Shown here: piece by piece, positions 877 through 60,477 of the stretch | How the letters are laid out: each line of letters begins with the position of its first letter | Position numbering within the stretch: position 1 is the first letter of the stretch | From: Selenomonadaceae bacterium | GTDB taxonomy: Bacteria > Bacillota > Clostridia > Oscillospirales > CAG-272 | DNA: 64,000 nt | NCBI GenBank assembly: GCA_963598415.1 | Contig: CAVBUH010000047.1 | Coordinates: forward strand, 140,024-204,023 | Reading direction: 5' to 3' | The notes under the pieces: model-generated | What the model was told of the DNA's origin: nothing | Seen by the model: the letters and a program-made list of their open reading frames with translations, nothing else | The model's database searches: none | Position numbers and translations under genes: made by a program

Positions 877-1059
877 AATAACCTATTGTATATTAAATCC
901 TCGCAGAAGACCAATTATACAATCCTTTCTCAAAATAGAGTTTTCTGTAAAACAGAGGTGTTTTCCGCTTCGGAGAACGCAACAATGCCTGTAGCGGTGC
1001 TCGCACCACCGAAAACCGGGCAGAAAGAGGATAAGCGGTGTAACCGACACTCTTTGCCG

Positions 1060-1236
1060 AAGGCGATACGCTGGATACGGCGGTACAAATGCACAGCCAT
1101 AGTTTTCGTCAAACAATATCAATTGAGGAGGAAGGAATACCTCCTCTGCCAACGAAATTTCTGAAGTATGAGGAAACCGGACAAGCAGATATGCCGTCTG
1201 GGCACAAGCCGTGAACCCGGCGGTACTGAATTAAGG
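1060..1236 (-). mobile_element. family-A MITE-like repeat, diverged copy
   Basis: The ends are AAGGCGATACGC ... CGGCGGTACTGAATTAAGG. The core is TTTTCGTCAAACAATATCAATTGAGGAGGAAGGAATACCTCCTCTGCCAACGAAATTT, which aligns with the other family-A copies. Confidence 0.6.
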
Positions 1237-1394
1237 GTAGCACTAATAATTCTCTGCTCACAGACTGCAAAGAGATTTTTTCGTCAGTTTAAACAGAAAT
1301 TCCGCAGACAGCGCATAATCCAGCAAGGATTCTTGTGACGAATGATGGAAAACATCTCGAACCGTTTTGGGGTAGTGAGGTTTTAGTGGTTCCC
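1235..1394 (+). mobile_element. family-B MITE-like repeat
   Basis: It runs GGGTAGCACTAATAA ... AAAGAGATTTTTTCGTCAGTTTAAACAGAAATTCCGCAGACAGCG ... TTTTAGTGGTTCCC. It aligns with the copies at 8926, 12336 and 35698 and directly abuts the family-A copy. Confidence 0.6.
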
Positions 1395-1416
1395 TTAATT
1401 CAGATTGAATTATTGG

Positions 1417-7036: not shown

Positions 7037-7345
7037 TAAGGCAATTATCGGAGAGTGATCGAAATGATTCCTACCGCAGCTTTAATGTATAAACATAATA
7101 AAATCCTTATGCCGTATAAAATTGACATGGATATGAAAAAAAGCCTCCGAAATCGGTTAAATCCCACTCTCTTTGATGGTTTTGCCAATTTATAGATACT
7201 CCGTACAGTGAAATATTGCACACAATCCGCAGAACGAACGAAGGAAACCGAACAGACGATGCGGCAATCCCGGTATCAGACCAAACGAAAATGTCCGGCT
7301 GACAGCTATCAAGAAAATTGCATAGCGGTGTTACAATTGATCATT
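7037..7345 (+). repeat. decayed family-A-like repeat (tentative)
   Basis: The left end is TAAGGCAATTATCGG. The right part is AACGAAAATGTCCGGCTGACAGCTATCAAGAAAATTGCATAGCGGTGTTACAATTGA, which parallels the family-A right arm GACGAAAAATCCGGCGGCGCAACTGCACAACAATCATTGTGCGGTATTGCCTTAA. It is longer than canonical copies and the interior is poorly alignable. Confidence 0.3.
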
Positions 7346-8797: not shown

Positions 8798-8877
8798 GCT
8801 TCCCGGCAGTGTTAAGACAGCATAGACGGATTCGCCCCTTTCGCCTTGACGGTGTTTCTGCACTGCCGGAACTGTAC

Positions 8878-9196
8878 TAAGGCAACACCGACAGGCTTAC
8901 GCATGCGCCTTGCTAATGCACCTGCGGGACAATTTCCCGTCAAAAATTCACCGCCCAAATCCGCCTTGATCTGCTTTCCGCCATTCGTTACAAGAAATCC
9001 TTGCCAGATGTATACGCTGTCTTCGGAATTTTTGTTTTGACTGAAAAAAACGCTTTACCGTCTATAAACATTGAACTTTAGAGATTCCCTTCACAAATTT
9101 TGCCGGTGAGGTGCCGCTTTTTGCCCCTCAATTGGTATCGTCTGATGAAAATAGGACTCCGCTCTGCACCATCAGAATCCGACGATATTGCCTTAA
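8878..9196 (+). mobile_element. family-A MITE-like repeat interrupted by a nested family-B element
   Basis: The left arm is TAAGGCAACACCGACAGGCTTACGCATGCGCC. The right arm is TTCACAAATTTTGCC...CCTCAATTGGTATCGTCTGATGAAAA...GACGATATTGCCTTAA. The extra roughly 164 bp in the middle is a family-B copy. Confidence 0.6.
8926..9089 (-). mobile_element. family-B MITE-like repeat nested in family A
   Basis: The reverse complement reads GGGAATCTCTAAAGTTCAATGTTTATAGACGGTAAAGCGTTTTTTTCAGTCAAAACAAAAATTCCGAAGACAGCG...GAATTTTTGACGGGAAATTGTCCC. It aligns with the other B copies. Confidence 0.6.
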
Positions 9197-11969: not shown

Positions 11970-12148
11970 TTAAGGCAGTACCTCACAATGATTGTTGTGC
12001 AGTTGCGCCGCCAGATTTTTCGTCAGACAATACCAATTGAGAAGGCAAGAGCGACTCCTCTGCCGACGAAATTGGTGAAGTATGACGGAAAAGATGCAAG
12101 CAAATCGCAACAAAGGCGTTAGCTGTGCATTGTGCGGTATTGCTTTAA
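11970..12148 (-). mobile_element. family-A MITE-like repeat
   Basis: It runs TTAAGGCAGTACCTCACAATGATTGTTGTGCAG ... GTGCGGTATTGCTTTAA, with the conserved core ...TTTTTCGTCAGACAATACCAATTGAGAAGGCAAGAGCGACTCCTCTGCCGACGAAATTGGTG... Confidence 0.8.
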
Positions 12149-12202
12149 GGCAGCACCGCACGATTCAAGGCACAAGCCATGATTTGTGCGGTGCTGCCTT
12201 AA
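12145..12202. repeat. TIR-only mini derivative of family A (58 bp palindromic hairpin)
   Basis: TTAAGGCAGCACCGCAC-(24 nt)-GTGCGGTGCTGCCTTAA. It shares its left TTAA with the end of the preceding full copy. Confidence 0.7.
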
Positions 12203-12335: not shown

Positions 12336-12503
12336 GGGCATCTCTAAAAATGCAATGTTCATAGGCGGCAAAGAGATTTTTCGTCAGTCAAAACAAAAAT
12401 TCCGCAGACAGCGGCCTTAAAAAACCGATTCCTTAATATGCACGGAGATTTATTATGGCGTCGTTATCAGATTGACACGAAAAAATTCGCTTTTTTGTGT
12501 CCC
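12336..12503 (+). mobile_element. family-B MITE-like repeat (3' half diverged)
   Basis: The sequence is GGGCATCTCTAAAAATGCAATGTTCATAGGCGGCAAAGAGATTTTTCGTCAGTCAAAACAAAAATTCCGCAGACAGCG ... TTTTTTGTGTCCC. Confidence 0.55.
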
Positions 12504-20669: not shown

Positions 20670-20849
20670 TTAAGGCAACACCGCACAATGATTGTTGTGC
20701 AGTTGCGCCGCCGGATTTTTCGTCAGACAATACAAATTGAGGAGGCAAGAGTGACTCCTCTGCCGACGAAATTTGTGAAGGTTGACGGAAAAGCTGCAAG
20801 CAAATACGCAATAAAGGCGTTAGCTGCGTCCCCCGCGGTATGGCCTTAA
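20670..20849 (-). mobile_element. family-A MITE-like repeat
   Basis: It runs TTAAGGCAACACCGCACAATGATTGTTGTGCAG ... CGCGGTATGGCCTTAA and starts 5 nt after the uvrC stop codon. Confidence 0.8.
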
Positions 20850-26690: not shown

Positions 26691-28151
26691 ATGAAATTCT
26701 CAGAGCTTGCACAAGACGCAAAGCAAATTATTCTTCCCTTTGATCCTGAAATAAAAGAAATTGTATCCGATTCTTCACAATGCCATCCGAACTGTCTTTT
26801 TATCTGTATAGACGGTCTGCACCGTGACGGACATGATTTTATCGACGAAGCAAGAAAAAGCGGAGCTTCCGCCTTTATCGTCGCCGCTTCTCACACGGAA
26901 AGAAAAGCATCTCTCCTATCAAGCGAGCTTCCGTTTGCCGTCTATGATGATACACGGATCGGAGAAGCGCTCATCACCTCCCGTTTTTTCGGGGAGCCGC
27001 AAAAAAAGCTTAAACTATTCGCAGTAACCGGAACTAACGGTAAAACAACCGTCGTTTCACTTTTAAATGCTATTTACACAATGGCGGGTTATTCCTGTCA
27101 AACCATCGGTACCCTCACCGGAAAGCTGACCACTCCCGATCCCTCCGTCTTATACAAAAGCCTTGCCGATTTTGTTGCGGATGGAGTCCAATACGTTTTT
27201 ATGGAGGCGTCCTCTCATGCGCTTGCGCTCGGAAAACTCGAACCGATTACTTTTGAATGCGGAATTTTCACCAATCTGACGCCCGAGCATCTGGATTTTC
27301 ACGGTTGCATGGATCATTACGCCGACGCAAAAGCAAAGCTGTTCAAAAAATCCGAACGGAGCATTTTAAACTCAGACGATTCTTACTGCCGTCATATGAT
27401 GCGAGCGGCGAAGGAAGCTTTTCTCTGTTCCGCCAGGCATGACGATTCTGATTTCTTTGCCAAAAATATCGTTCAAAACGGAATTTACGGAATACAATAC
27501 GATTTTATGACTACCGATTTAGTCTTTAAAATTAAATCCGGCATACCGGGGCTTTTCACGGTGATGAATACTATGGAGGCTGCCGCCGCCGCTTTAACCG
27601 GCGGAATCTCTCCCGATATTATCAGAGGGGCAATCGGTGGGTTTGCCGGTGTGAAAGGAAGACTCGAACGGGTAAGGATACCTACAAACGATTTTTCCGT
27701 ATACATCGACTTCGCTCACACTCCCGACGCGCTTGAAAACATTCTTCGCACTGTCAGAAGCTTTATGAATGAGAAACAGAGGCTTGTCCTCGTTTTCGGC
27801 TGCGGAGGCGACAGAGATAAAACAAAGCGCCCTGTAATGGGTGCTATTGCAACACAGCTTGCCGATTTCGTAATCATCACCGCGGATAACAGCAGAAGCG
27901 AAAAAACCTCCGATATCATCGATAATATTCTCTCCGGCGTGATGACCGATGCGGTTTATACCGTTATCGAAAACAGAAAAGAAGCCATTGAATACGCCGT
28001 CAGTACAGCCTGTCGCGATGATGTTATTCTTCTCACCGGAAAAGGTCACGAGGAATACGAGATTATGCCGGACGGAGTACATCCTTTTTCCGAAAAGGAC
28101 ATCGTGACGGAAGCCGCAAAAAAGTACATGAAATCAAGGGGACTGTTTTAA
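26691..28151 (+). CDS. murE: UDP-N-acetylmuramoyl-L-alanyl-D-glutamate--diamino acid ligase MurE
   Basis: 486 aa. It has the P-loop VTGTNGKTT, Mur ligase middle and C-terminal domains and GKGHE. The TAA stop codon lies within the terminal TTAAGG of the adjacent repeat. Confidence 0.85.
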   Translation: MKFSELAQDAKQIILPFDPEIKEIVSDSSQCHPNCLFICIDGLHRDGHDFIDEARKSGASAFIVAASHTERKASLLSSELPFAVYDDTRIGEALITSRFFGEPQKKLKLFAVTGTNGKTTVVSLLNAIYTMAGYSCQTIGTLTGKLTTPDPSVLYKSLADFVADGVQYVFMEASSHALALGKLEPITFECGIFTNLTPEHLDFHGCMDHYADAKAKLFKKSERSILNSDDSYCRHMMRAAKEAFLCSARHDDSDFFAKNIVQNGIYGIQYDFMTTDLVFKIKSGIPGLFTVMNTMEAAAAALTGGISPDIIRGAIGGFAGVKGRLERVRIPTNDFSVYIDFAHTPDALENILRTVRSFMNEKQRLVLVFGCGGDRDKTKRPVMGAIATQLADFVIITADNSRSEKTSDIIDNILSGVMTDAVYTVIENRKEAIEYAVSTACRDDVILLTGKGHEEYEIMPDGVHPFSEKDIVTEAAKKYMKSRGLF

Positions 28152-28318
28152 GGCAATACCGTCGGGTGCACAGCTAACGCCTTTATTGGGCATTTGCTTC
28201 CATCTTTTCCATCATACTTTACCAATTTCGTCGGCAGAGGAGTCACTCTTGCCTCCTCTGTCTGACGAAAAATCCAGTGGCACAACTGCACAACAATCAT
28301 TGCGCGGTATTGCCTTAA
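28148..28318 (+). mobile_element. family-A MITE-like repeat inside the dcw operon (murE-murF spacer)
   Basis: It runs TTAAGGCAATACCGTCGGGTGCACAGCTAACGCC ... GCGCGGTATTGCCTTAA. It lacks about 9 nt (AATTTGTAT) that other copies have after the central CTCCTC. Confidence 0.8.
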
Positions 28319-35697: not shown

Positions 35698-35858
35698 GGG
35701 GAACCTCTAAAAATTTAATGTTCCCAGACCAGCAATCGGTAGTCAAAACAAAAATTCGACAGACAGCGTATATATATACCTGATAAGATTTTTTGTGACC
35801 GACGAATGGCGGAAAACAGTTCGATTTGGAATTGGGGCAGTGAATTTTTAGAGGTACC
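35698..35858 (+). mobile_element. family-B MITE-like repeat in the ftsZ 3' region
   Basis: The ends are GGGGAACCTCTAAAAATT ... AATTTTTAGAGGTACC, a clear inverted-repeat pair. The core is GTAGTCAAAACAAAAATTCGACAGACAGCG. It lies between the ftsZ stop codon and the terminator hairpin. Confidence 0.7.
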
Positions 35859-35939: not shown

Positions 35940-36120
35940 TTAAGGCAATACCGCCGGTCGCACAGCTAACGCCTTTATTGCGCATTTGCTTGCAGCTTTT
36001 CCCTCATACTTCACCAATTTCGTCGACAGAGGGAGGCGATCCTGCCTCCTCAATTTATATTGTTTGACGAAAAGTCCGGAGGCGCAGCTGCACAACAATC
36101 ATTGCGTGGTATTGCCTTAA
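35940..36120 (+). mobile_element. family-A MITE-like repeat (used as reference copy)
   Basis: It runs TTAAGGCAATACCGCCGGTCGCACAGCTAACGCCTTTATTGCGCATTTGCTTGC ... GCGTGGTATTGCCTTAA and is 181 bp long. Confidence 0.8.
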
Positions 36121-36926: not shown

Positions 36927-37039
36927 TCCCGTCCTCCTCTTCTATACTGTGTATCCGTTACTCTTAAGGTGATACTGTGCGGCAATATAAATCTCTGAAG
37001 TGTTATACTTATACCATACTTTTTACAATTTGTCAACCG

Positions 37040-37938: not shown

Positions 37939-38019
37939 CTGAAATTATGCGATTTTTTTAGTCTCTGCACCGTTTTCTGCACCGATAAGTGTAAAATTTG
38001 ATGTAAAGCTGTAAATTTT
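37939..38019 (+). repeat. direct repeat copy 1 (2x CTGCACCG plus 3x TGTAAA iterons)
   Basis: CTGAAATTATGCGATTTTTTTAGTCTCTGCACCGTTTTCTGCACCGATAAGTGTAAAATTTGATGTAAAGCTGTAAATTTT. It is highly similar to 43047..43125. Confidence 0.75.
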
Positions 38020-43046: not shown

Positions 43047-43125
43047 CTCAAAATTATGCGATTTTTTAGTCTCTGCACCGTTTTTAGCACCGATTGGTGT
43101 AAATTTGGTGTAAAGAGGTAAATTT
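43047..43125 (+). repeat. direct repeat copy 2
   Basis: CTCAAAATTATGCGATTTTTTAGTCTCTGCACCGTTTTTAGCACCGATTGGTGTAAATTTGGTGTAAAGAGGTAAATTT. It lies between the lysS stop codon and its terminator hairpin. Confidence 0.75.
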
Positions 43126-56763: not shown

Positions 56764-56930
56764 TTAAGGCAATACCGCACAATGTGCTCCGCCAGATTTT
56801 TTGTCAGACAATACAAATTGAGGAGGCAAGAGCGACTCCTCTGCCAATGAAATTGGTAAAGTATGACGGAAAAGAGGCAAGCATATGCGCAATAAAGGTG
56901 TTAGCTTTGCACCCGGCGGTATTGTCTTAA
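56764..56930 (-). mobile_element. family-A MITE-like repeat
   Basis: It runs TTAAGGCAATACCGCACAATGTGCTCCGCC ... CCCGGCGGTATTGTCTTAA and carries a short internal deletion in the left arm relative to other copies. Confidence 0.8.
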
Positions 56931-60298: not shown

Positions 60299-60477
60299 TT
60301 AAGGCCGCACTGCTGGGTGAACAGCTAACGCCTTTTTGCGCATATGCTTGCACCTATTCCGTCATACTTCAAGAATTTCATCGACAGAGAAGTCGCGCTT
60401 GCTTCCGCAATTTGTATTGTCTGACGAAAAATCCGGCGGCGCAACTGTACAACAATCATTGTGCGATTTTACCTTAA
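60299..60477 (+). mobile_element. family-A MITE-like repeat (more diverged)
   Basis: It runs TTAAGGCCGCACTGCTGGGTGAACAGCTAACGCC ... GTGCGATTTTACCTTAA. The core is recognisable, but the central hairpin and the TIRs are eroded. Confidence 0.7.

Follow-up and report, generated by a model that had tools for sequence, protein, structure and literature searches.

A widespread miniature inverted-repeat element of gut Clostridia, probably moved in trans by IS5-family transposases

INTRODUCTION

Correia elements of Neisseria and RUP elements of Streptococcus pneumoniae duplicate the dinucleotide TA, and RUP has been linked to an IS630-type element. Among the type II MITEs (miniature inverted-repeat transposable elements), the BrickBuilt and MITEPgRS elements of Porphyromonas gingivalis and the ATR element of Neisseria meningitidis resemble an insertion sequence (IS) in their terminal inverted repeats (TIRs) only, and these are identical or nearly identical to the ends of IS5-family elements (PMC4596501). 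IS5 itself duplicates four target bases, 5'-YTAR-3' (PMC5009759). Here we describe family A, a short repeat found in several copies in a 64,000-nucleotide stretch of Clostridia DNA (contig CAVBUH010000047.1 of assembly GCA_963598415.1, positions 140,024 to 204,023; hereafter the window). An earlier account made from the letters of the window (the sequence-only reading) had read the repeat as what a MITE made from both ends of some DDE-type IS would look like, and this interpretation is supported here by further copies, empty sites, the lack of an Rfam match and full-length ISs with the same TIRs. We consider it very probable that family A is a MITE, hence a DNA transposon of the non-autonomous kind, moved in trans by an IS5-family transposase lineage.

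RESULTS

Family A copies are flanked by a 4-bp target duplication

The family A unit comprises a non-coding core of 172 bp, GGCAAYACCGCAYAAT...ATTRTGCGGTRTTGCC, with four duplicated target bases, usually TTAA, on either side. Its TIRs of 16–18 bp, GGCAAYACCGCAYAAT(TC), stand inverted at both ends, and the inverted sub-terminal motif described earlier (TTTCGTC...GACGAAA) is present. The window holds 13 matches to the 15-mer TTAAGGCAATACCGC with no more than 2 mismatches, where shuffled sequence leads one to expect 0.13 by chance. With an nhmmer profile built from the window copies, and with BLAST using the copy at 35940–36120 as query, we found seven full-length copies at E-values from 2e-44 to 1e-60. 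Core lengths in the window run from 159 to 173 bp, inside the ~50–800 bp expected of a MITE without coding capacity, and internal-deletion forms of 37–100 bp exist as well. We found no coding signal in the element: stops (9.5 vs 11.8) and open frames (1.5 vs 0.8) did not differ significantly from dinucleotide shuffles, and no frame was conserved. A hidden small protein or read-through design was considered as several frames looked open, but these did not go beyond the shuffles and the idea was dropped. Gene callers do place a 50–53-aa reverse-strand open reading frame (ORF) inside the copy between murE and murF (L019:4458-4610 and L029:11458-11619, and at the same position elsewhere; L numbers denote loci), which is not conserved and almost certainly spurious.

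All intact window copies read TTAAGG...CCTTAA. Their flanks are nearly always TTAA, a palindrome, which leaves no means of telling TIR and duplication apart within the window. Copies with non-palindromic flanks came from other Clostridia metagenome-assembled genomes (MAGs), human faecal contigs, IMG/VR contigs and Subdoligranulum variabile. There, GGCAA...TTGCC cores carry direct 4-mers on both sides, namely TTGA (L013), TAAG (L033), TTAT (L011, L048), CTAA (L040, L067), TTAG (L048, L050, L064), ATAA (L063), and CTTA and TCAA (L065), which indicates that the duplication is 4 bp and not TA. Identical 4-mers flanked 25 of 46 complete elements from the IMG/VR matches listed and S. variabile (TTAG 6, TTAA 5, CTAA 4, and others), with TTAA, TTAG and CTAA together making up 15 of the 25. 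A looser scan over all loci gave 33 identical-flank pairs against none for the next 4-mers outward, and 22 of the 33 fit YTAR. Family A therefore has a target duplication of fixed length, 4 bp, at TTAA/YTAR-like sites. The sequence-only reading had allowed either TA or TTAA as the duplication; the relatives' non-palindromic direct repeats settle this in favour of the 4-bp TTAA and against TA.

These flanks also bear on whether the repeat, in the manner of Correia and RUP elements, could be an IS630/Tc1-mariner-type MITE with a TA-only duplication and the outer T...A lying inside the inverted repeat. The TTAAGG...CCTTAA of the window copies fits TA as well as it fits TTAA. However, the TTGA, TAAG, TTAG, CTAA and TTAT direct repeats of the relatives cannot arise from TA duplication, and the IS elements with the same ends (described below) belong to the IS5 family, making this a highly improbable origin. 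The likeness to Correia and RUP elements that had been drawn from the window gives way to a 4-bp YTAR-like duplication and an IS5-family partner.

IS5-family elements with the same ends are found in metagenomes

As had been said of the window, no transposase was found among the window ORFs tested, and pairing plus- and minus-strand TIRs 0.4–6 kb apart over all loci gave only chance matches. We then screened the ORFs of all fetched loci with InsH, the transposase of Escherichia coli IS5. A strong homologue (E = 8e-81) was encoded by L148, a contig that starts inside a MITE and the only one in which a MITE and a related IS5-family element were found together. This related IS is 1134 bp long; the left end in its relatives is GGCAATCCCGCACAAAG, flanked by TTAG, TTAA or TTAC, and is identical to the MITE end at 15 of 17 positions. 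Relatives fetched from metagenomes with its transposase included full-length ISs of 1106–1139 bp in which both ends equal the MITE TIR and 4-bp duplications are present. Such elements read ctat-GGCAATACCGCACAAACC...GGCAGCACCGCACAATTG-ctat in L206, ttaa-GGCAACACCGCACGAAG...GGCAACACCGCATAATAG-ttaa in L210 and ctaa-GGCAACACCGCACAACTT...GGCAACACCGCACAAATG-ctaa in L211. Others of this kind are in L205, L207 and L212 and, on longer contigs, in L275 (NCBI MAG GCA_963655715.1), L276 (with a 74-bp mini element 0.9 kb away) and L277 (TTAA on both sides). The full-length IS with the same TIRs that the MITE interpretation called for was thus found, and it is of the IS5 family. The partner transposases (322–326 aa; L206, L210 and L211) scored 296–304 bits on the NCBIfam model NF033581 'IS5 family transposase' (cutoff 140) and also matched Pfam DDE_Tnp_1 and DUF772. 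More distant IS5-group relatives in IMG/VR have other ends, e.g. GGAAGGTCTGAACAAG, yet the same ctaa, ctag or ttaa duplications. The plasmid collection lacked any closely related partner transposase; its nearest entry was 45% identical.

The ~1.1-kb IS5-family elements of gut metagenomes, which match the MITE TIR over 15–18 bp at both ends and make 4-bp YTAR duplications, are the likely source of the transposase. Internal-deletion derivatives of the related IS that keep the left end intact were also recovered (626 bp in L183 and L185, 620 bp in L219, 756 bp in L213 and 1042 bp in L201), and these may be intermediate steps towards non-autonomous elements. Two other candidates for a mobilising enzyme were discarded: an IS256-type transposase beside a solo end in L045 was unrelated, and a 473-aa protein present at multiple loci turned out to be a PAPS-reductase/DUF3440 protein.

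A palindromic, intergenic, high-copy repeat could also suggest that a RAYT (Y1/HUH) enzyme has spread a palindrome of the REP/BIME kind, or an element associated with IS200/IS605-type palindromes. Such elements lack a target duplication and matched TIRs, REP/BIME units being short palindromes with a conserved head, whereas family A as a rule carries a 4-bp duplication whose sequence varies, and its ends are common to DDE-type ISs; we regard this origin as the least probable of those considered, with next to no chance of being right.

Occupied and empty sites differ among relatives

Empty orthologous sites in relatives, another expectation for a mobile element, were found in a syntenic contig of a related genome (L030, GCA_054267355.1) whose MurE is 72% identical to that of the window. 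There, uvrC and rsmD are separated by 10 bp and murE and murF by 31 bp, spacings so short that both sites must be empty. At its murE stop codon this genome reads CTTTTTTAAAATTCC, which contains TTAA, and the window reads CTGTTTTAA(GGC...GCC)TTAAGTTC. By this comparison, the murE–murF copy is an insertion into a TTAA overlapping the murE stop codon, and in the window that stop codon is supplied by the TTAA (28148–28151) of the copy.

Closer at hand, a sister strain (L029, GCA_964311565.1) is 96–97% identical over 19 kb and retains one of the three window copies in the shared 20 kb, the murE–murF copy, in an undeleted 180-bp form. It has no copy after ftsZ (35940–36120 in the window), and its uvrC–rsmD gap (L029:3931-4168) holds an unrelated 238-bp spacer in place of the MITE. 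The murE–murF copy was present in all same-species contigs seen; exact MurE and FtsZ look-ups for a clean within-species empty site gave only insertion-carrying contigs. Among the same-species records are ERZ1106976 NODE_803 and GCA_964311565.1.

A further same-species contig (L020:4458-4637; ERZ27237211 k119_63524) has a murE-side MITE half that matches the window copy and another half from a different copy, and the DNA past its MITE is absent from the window. Either two copies have recombined here, or the assembly is chimeric through the repeat.

The whole element folds into one hairpin

Single copies fold beyond shuffles, with z = −4.7 and −4.0 as RNA of either strand and −3.6 as DNA. The main subfamily has as its consensus fold a single hairpin of 52 pairs in which 93.6% of cells are paired, against 33–47% when the partners are slid, and 35 cells are compensatory, a number reached by none of 500 shuffles. 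No single consensus fold held for all subfamilies together, as the registers shift; the architecture of TIR, two arms and a central hairpin with compensated sequence change is constant across them. Central stems observed are GAGGAG/CTCCTC, GCGAATAC/GTATTCGC, GATAATAC/GTATTATC and CAGGC/GCCTG. The whole element is one long imperfect hairpin kept by compensatory changes, and co-transcribed copies would put a strong stem-loop into the mRNA. The murE–murF copy, being inside an operon, is presumably transcribed as such a stem-loop; we found no promoter-like or terminator-like sites in this copy.

The strong fold, with its pairing conserved through compensatory changes, is what a structured non-coding RNA gene or cis-regulatory RNA would be expected to show, in which case family A would not be a mobile element. 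Rfam gave no matches in the whole window at the gathering score, and at E ≤ 1 a search with one copy gave only an 18-bit chance match against a 70-bit threshold; the sequence-only reading had not recognised the sequence as a named element. Both strands fold equally well, the DNA being a palindrome, and the copies occupy non-orthologous loci in either orientation, with target duplications and with empty sites in relatives. An RNA gene is therefore very hard to reconcile with the data.

The hairpin raises the separate possibility that a MITE has also been put to host use, as an RNase III site in the transcript, an mRNA stabiliser, a gene decoupler or a protein-binding DNA palindrome, and that selection retains the copies. 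The exact 172-bp length and compensated hairpin are held across subfamilies in hosts of 43% to 60% GC, the murE–murF copy is fixed in all the same-species contigs seen, the inner blocks TTTTCCGTCA...CTGACGAAAAATC occur even in the sibling family B, whose ends differ, and no window copy lies between divergent gene starts. Nevertheless, copies stand in both orientations and in non-orthologous places, their presence or absence varies between strains, internal deletions of 9–13 bp and mini forms are tolerated, and the murE–murF copy lacks terminator-like and promoter-like sites. The palindrome is equally explained by a symmetric requirement for transposition, and we consider host use unlikely. A related reading holds that the fold-back is itself the functional unit, either as a hairpin or cruciform intermediate that very short substrates would need for an unusual IS5-type transposition or as an RNA or DNA structure exploited by the host in essential operons such as dcw. 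It is prompted by the length and compensated hairpin that persist from 43%- to 60%-GC hosts and by the inner module shared with family B, and we think it has only a small chance of being correct. Most likely, transposition makes symmetric demands on the two ends and the hairpin is their outcome rather than a sign of host function.

Family A copies in the window are all intergenic

The window is housekeeping DNA of 43% GC that includes uvrC, rsmD, the dcw cluster from mraZ to ftsZ, rimM and sporulation genes. In line with the earlier count of several TIR-bounded copies of ~170–180 bp, it holds seven full copies, one interrupted copy, a 58-bp mini element and debris. Four of the full copies have TTAA on both sides and cores close to the standard length: 11970–12148 (minus strand, 171-bp core, nhmmer E = 1.9e-58), 20670–20849 in the uvrC–rsmD gap (minus, 172 bp, E = 1e-60), 35940–36120, the focal copy, in the gap between ftsZ and a DUF218 gene (plus, 173 bp, E = 6.8e-59), and 60299–60477 (plus, 171 bp, E = 3.2e-55). 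Internal deletions mark two more, of 9 bp at 28148–28318 in the murE–murF gap of the dcw cluster (plus, 163-bp core, E = 1.7e-53) and of 13 bp at 56764–56930 (minus, 159-bp core, TTAA on both sides, E = 2.1e-52). The copy at 1058–1234 (minus, core 1062–1230, E = 2.1e-44) has degenerate ends and the flanks CGAA and TTAA. Full copies thus lie on both strands, as previously reported, and the observation that copies are always intergenic holds for all window copies: convergent genes enclose three of them and co-directional genes five, and no copy separates divergent starts.

The interrupted copy, proposed earlier at 8878–9196, is a real family A element carrying a nested family B copy. It spans 8877–9196 on the plus strand (core 8881–9192, flanks CTAA and TTAA), is matched by nhmmer in three pieces (profile positions 2–69, 47–134 and 62–180) and has its TIR pair at 8881 and 9192. 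A left-end remnant (profile positions 1–50) lies on the plus strand at 8812–8861, identified by a weak nhmmer match and by reading the sequence. The 58-bp derivative at 12145–12202 likewise proved genuine: it consists of a 50-bp core made of TIR plus TIR, and its TTAA at 12145–12148 is common to the preceding full copy. Two further proposals from the sequence-only reading found no support, as a supposed decayed copy at 7037–7345 gave no profile matches even at E ≤ 1 and a supposed solo end at 36964–36982 has at least 3 mismatches, which is indistinguishable from chance.

The window also contains a 45-nt direct repeat, at 37954–37998 and 43062–43106, that is 89% identical and unrelated to families A and B.

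A sibling family is nested in and beside family A

Family B is a sibling MITE with a 160-bp core, TIRs GGGTAGCACTAATAATTC / GGGAACCACTAAAA.. and a TTAA duplication. In its inner module it is similar to family A, the blocks TTTTCCGTCA...CTGACGAAAAATC being common to both; its ends differ and resemble the right end of the related IS (GGATGTCCCTCATAATTG). The copy at 1231–1398 (minus strand, core 1235–1394, TIRs GGGTAGCACTAATAATTC / GGGAACCACTAAAACCTC) has TTAA on both sides, and the left one (1231–1234) is common to the family A copy at 1058–1234. A second copy is nested at ~8935–9088 inside 8877–9196, a truncated third lies at 12336–12416 (minus, boundaries approximate), and a fourth at 35698–35858 (minus, boundaries approximate) begins 4 nt past the ftsZ stop codon and is missing in the sister strain. 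All four adjoin or sit within a family A copy. The elements insert into one another or into each other's flanking TTAA (1231–1234, 12145–12148 and 8812–9196, the last being a family A copy with a nested family B copy beside a further family A remnant), so some spacers are piles of MITE debris.

Family A is widespread and interrupts metagenomic contigs

Additional copies outside the window, which the MITE interpretation had anticipated, were found in other Clostridia MAGs, faecal contigs, IMG/VR and S. variabile. A scan of one genome per species, in which the window's own genome was not among the matches, gave 14 matches in one 'Lachnospiraceae' MAG (CAYOFP01) and a single match in each of four other Clostridia MAGs. 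Human faecal 'Bacteriophage sp.' contigs carry diverged copies, ~73% identical; the TIR alone found at least 120 stretches in IMG/VR and many copies in S. variabile records (60% GC). Despite strongly differing interiors, 31 of 46 complete elements from the IMG/VR matches listed and S. variabile are exactly 172 bp long.

Among the 133 IMG/VR TIR stretches listed (loci L035–L170, e.g. L087, whole contig 4012 bp, L050, 13120 bp, and L048), 61 start and 42 end inside the element. In some IMG/VR contigs the two cut MITE halves form inverted terminal repeats of 50–80 nt, which might be taken for true ends of viral genomes. At L037:2650-2735 and L043:450-520 a MITE copy breaks off after ~60 bp, at the very point where the gene for a large serine recombinase starts with its 3' end; an insertion of an integrative element into a MITE copy, or recombination between the two, may have occurred there; the recombinase was considered as a mobiliser of family A and rejected. 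The S. variabile TSDC17.2-1.1 assembly contains dozens of 55–335-kb non-mobilizable 'plasmid' records (L065–L067; PLSDB OY725839.1, OY725847.1), one of which encodes an FtsZ homologue (L065:18601-19818), and these records look like mislabelled pieces of chromosome.

DISCUSSION

Family A is short and non-coding, has TIRs and a target duplication of fixed length, is dispersed in copies with both filled and empty sites, and has an autonomous counterpart with the same ends, which are the features of a MITE. For mobilisation by IS5-type elements, the 4-bp YTAR-like duplication and the IS5-family-matching ends were found, and an IS-derived interior was not. Under the mechanism we propose, family A encodes nothing and the DDE transposase of a ~1.1-kb IS5-family IS lineage would act in trans. 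The transposase would bind both MITE ends and join them to a target cut with a 4-bp stagger, the repair of which would leave the four target bases duplicated. We infer that this IS lineage is the actual mobiliser in the window's organism and that copies are still active.

Several points weigh against this explanation. Local alignments confine the similarity between MITE and IS to the terminal 15–18 bp, so family A is not a simple deletion derivative of the ISs found. Apart from the one related IS in L148, no matching IS was found in the window or in ~1 Mb of MITE-flanking DNA from other loci, and the mechanism has to assume an IS5-lineage transposase in the window's organism, now or in the past. 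The sole within-species absent site, after ftsZ in the sister strain, has a diverged junction with no clean excision or empty junction. In the hairpin, the compensatory changes mostly follow one split between two host lineages and amount to few independent events. 

Family A is apparently a new, unnamed family, as checked against Rfam and the literature, of a well-known kind of element, and it is widespread in gut Clostridia. A full-text literature search for the TIR string returned only unrelated primers, and a survey paper on prokaryotic MITEs does not name the family. To a specialist the element would be unsurprising; the value lies in cataloguing the repeat and its partner, in its presence within essential operons and in its effect on assemblies. 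Repeats of gut Clostridia are poorly catalogued, and with family A the list of mobile elements in Clostridia from human and animal guts gains a very widespread unnamed MITE superfamily together with its probable IS5-family partner. As the element sits inside core operons (murE–murF, uvrC–rsmD, after ftsZ) and varies between strains, it marks recent genome change and may serve as a substrate for rearrangements. It is also a frequent contig breakpoint that breaks metagenome assemblies, and metagenomic contigs can acquire false inverted terminal repeats from its two palindromic halves, which matters for 'complete viral genome' calls in virus catalogues.

When family A is set beside known systems, the ERIC/IRU repeats and the Rickettsia palindromic elements (RPEs) share with it a whole-element imperfect palindrome that can form one long hairpin. 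ERIC, however, has no established relation to TIRs, target duplication or a transposase, and RPEs lie in frame inside genes, whereas the window copies of family A are intergenic with open frames not above shuffles. Like Correia (Neisseria) and RUP (S. pneumoniae), family A is a small TIR-bounded intergenic high-copy repeat, those elements measuring ~100–160 bp and often being co-transcribed with their neighbours; it differs in its 4-bp duplication and IS5-family partner. BrickBuilt, MITEPgRS and ATR are alike in being short, non-coding, intergenic, strain-variable and often nested or adjacent, as well as in the restriction of IS similarity to TIRs that match IS5-family ends. Their sequences are unrelated to family A, whose host belongs to another phylum, the Clostridia, and whose body is a fixed 172-bp fold-back without an internal minisatellite; the duplications of BrickBuilt are irregular, in contrast to the regular 4-bp TTAA/YTAR of family A. 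With E. coli IS5 and the IS5 group, family A shares ends that begin with GG and a 4-bp 5'-YTAR-3' duplication (PMC5009759; compare ctaa-GGAAGGTCTGAACAAG...-ctaa in IMG/VR), and the partner transposases match E. coli InsH (E = 8e-81) and NF033581. The MITE, unlike IS5, carries no transposase gene and has ends of GGCAAYACCGC... against GGAAGGTGCGAA... in IS5, and its partner lineage is only ~45% identical to proteobacterial IS5 relatives.

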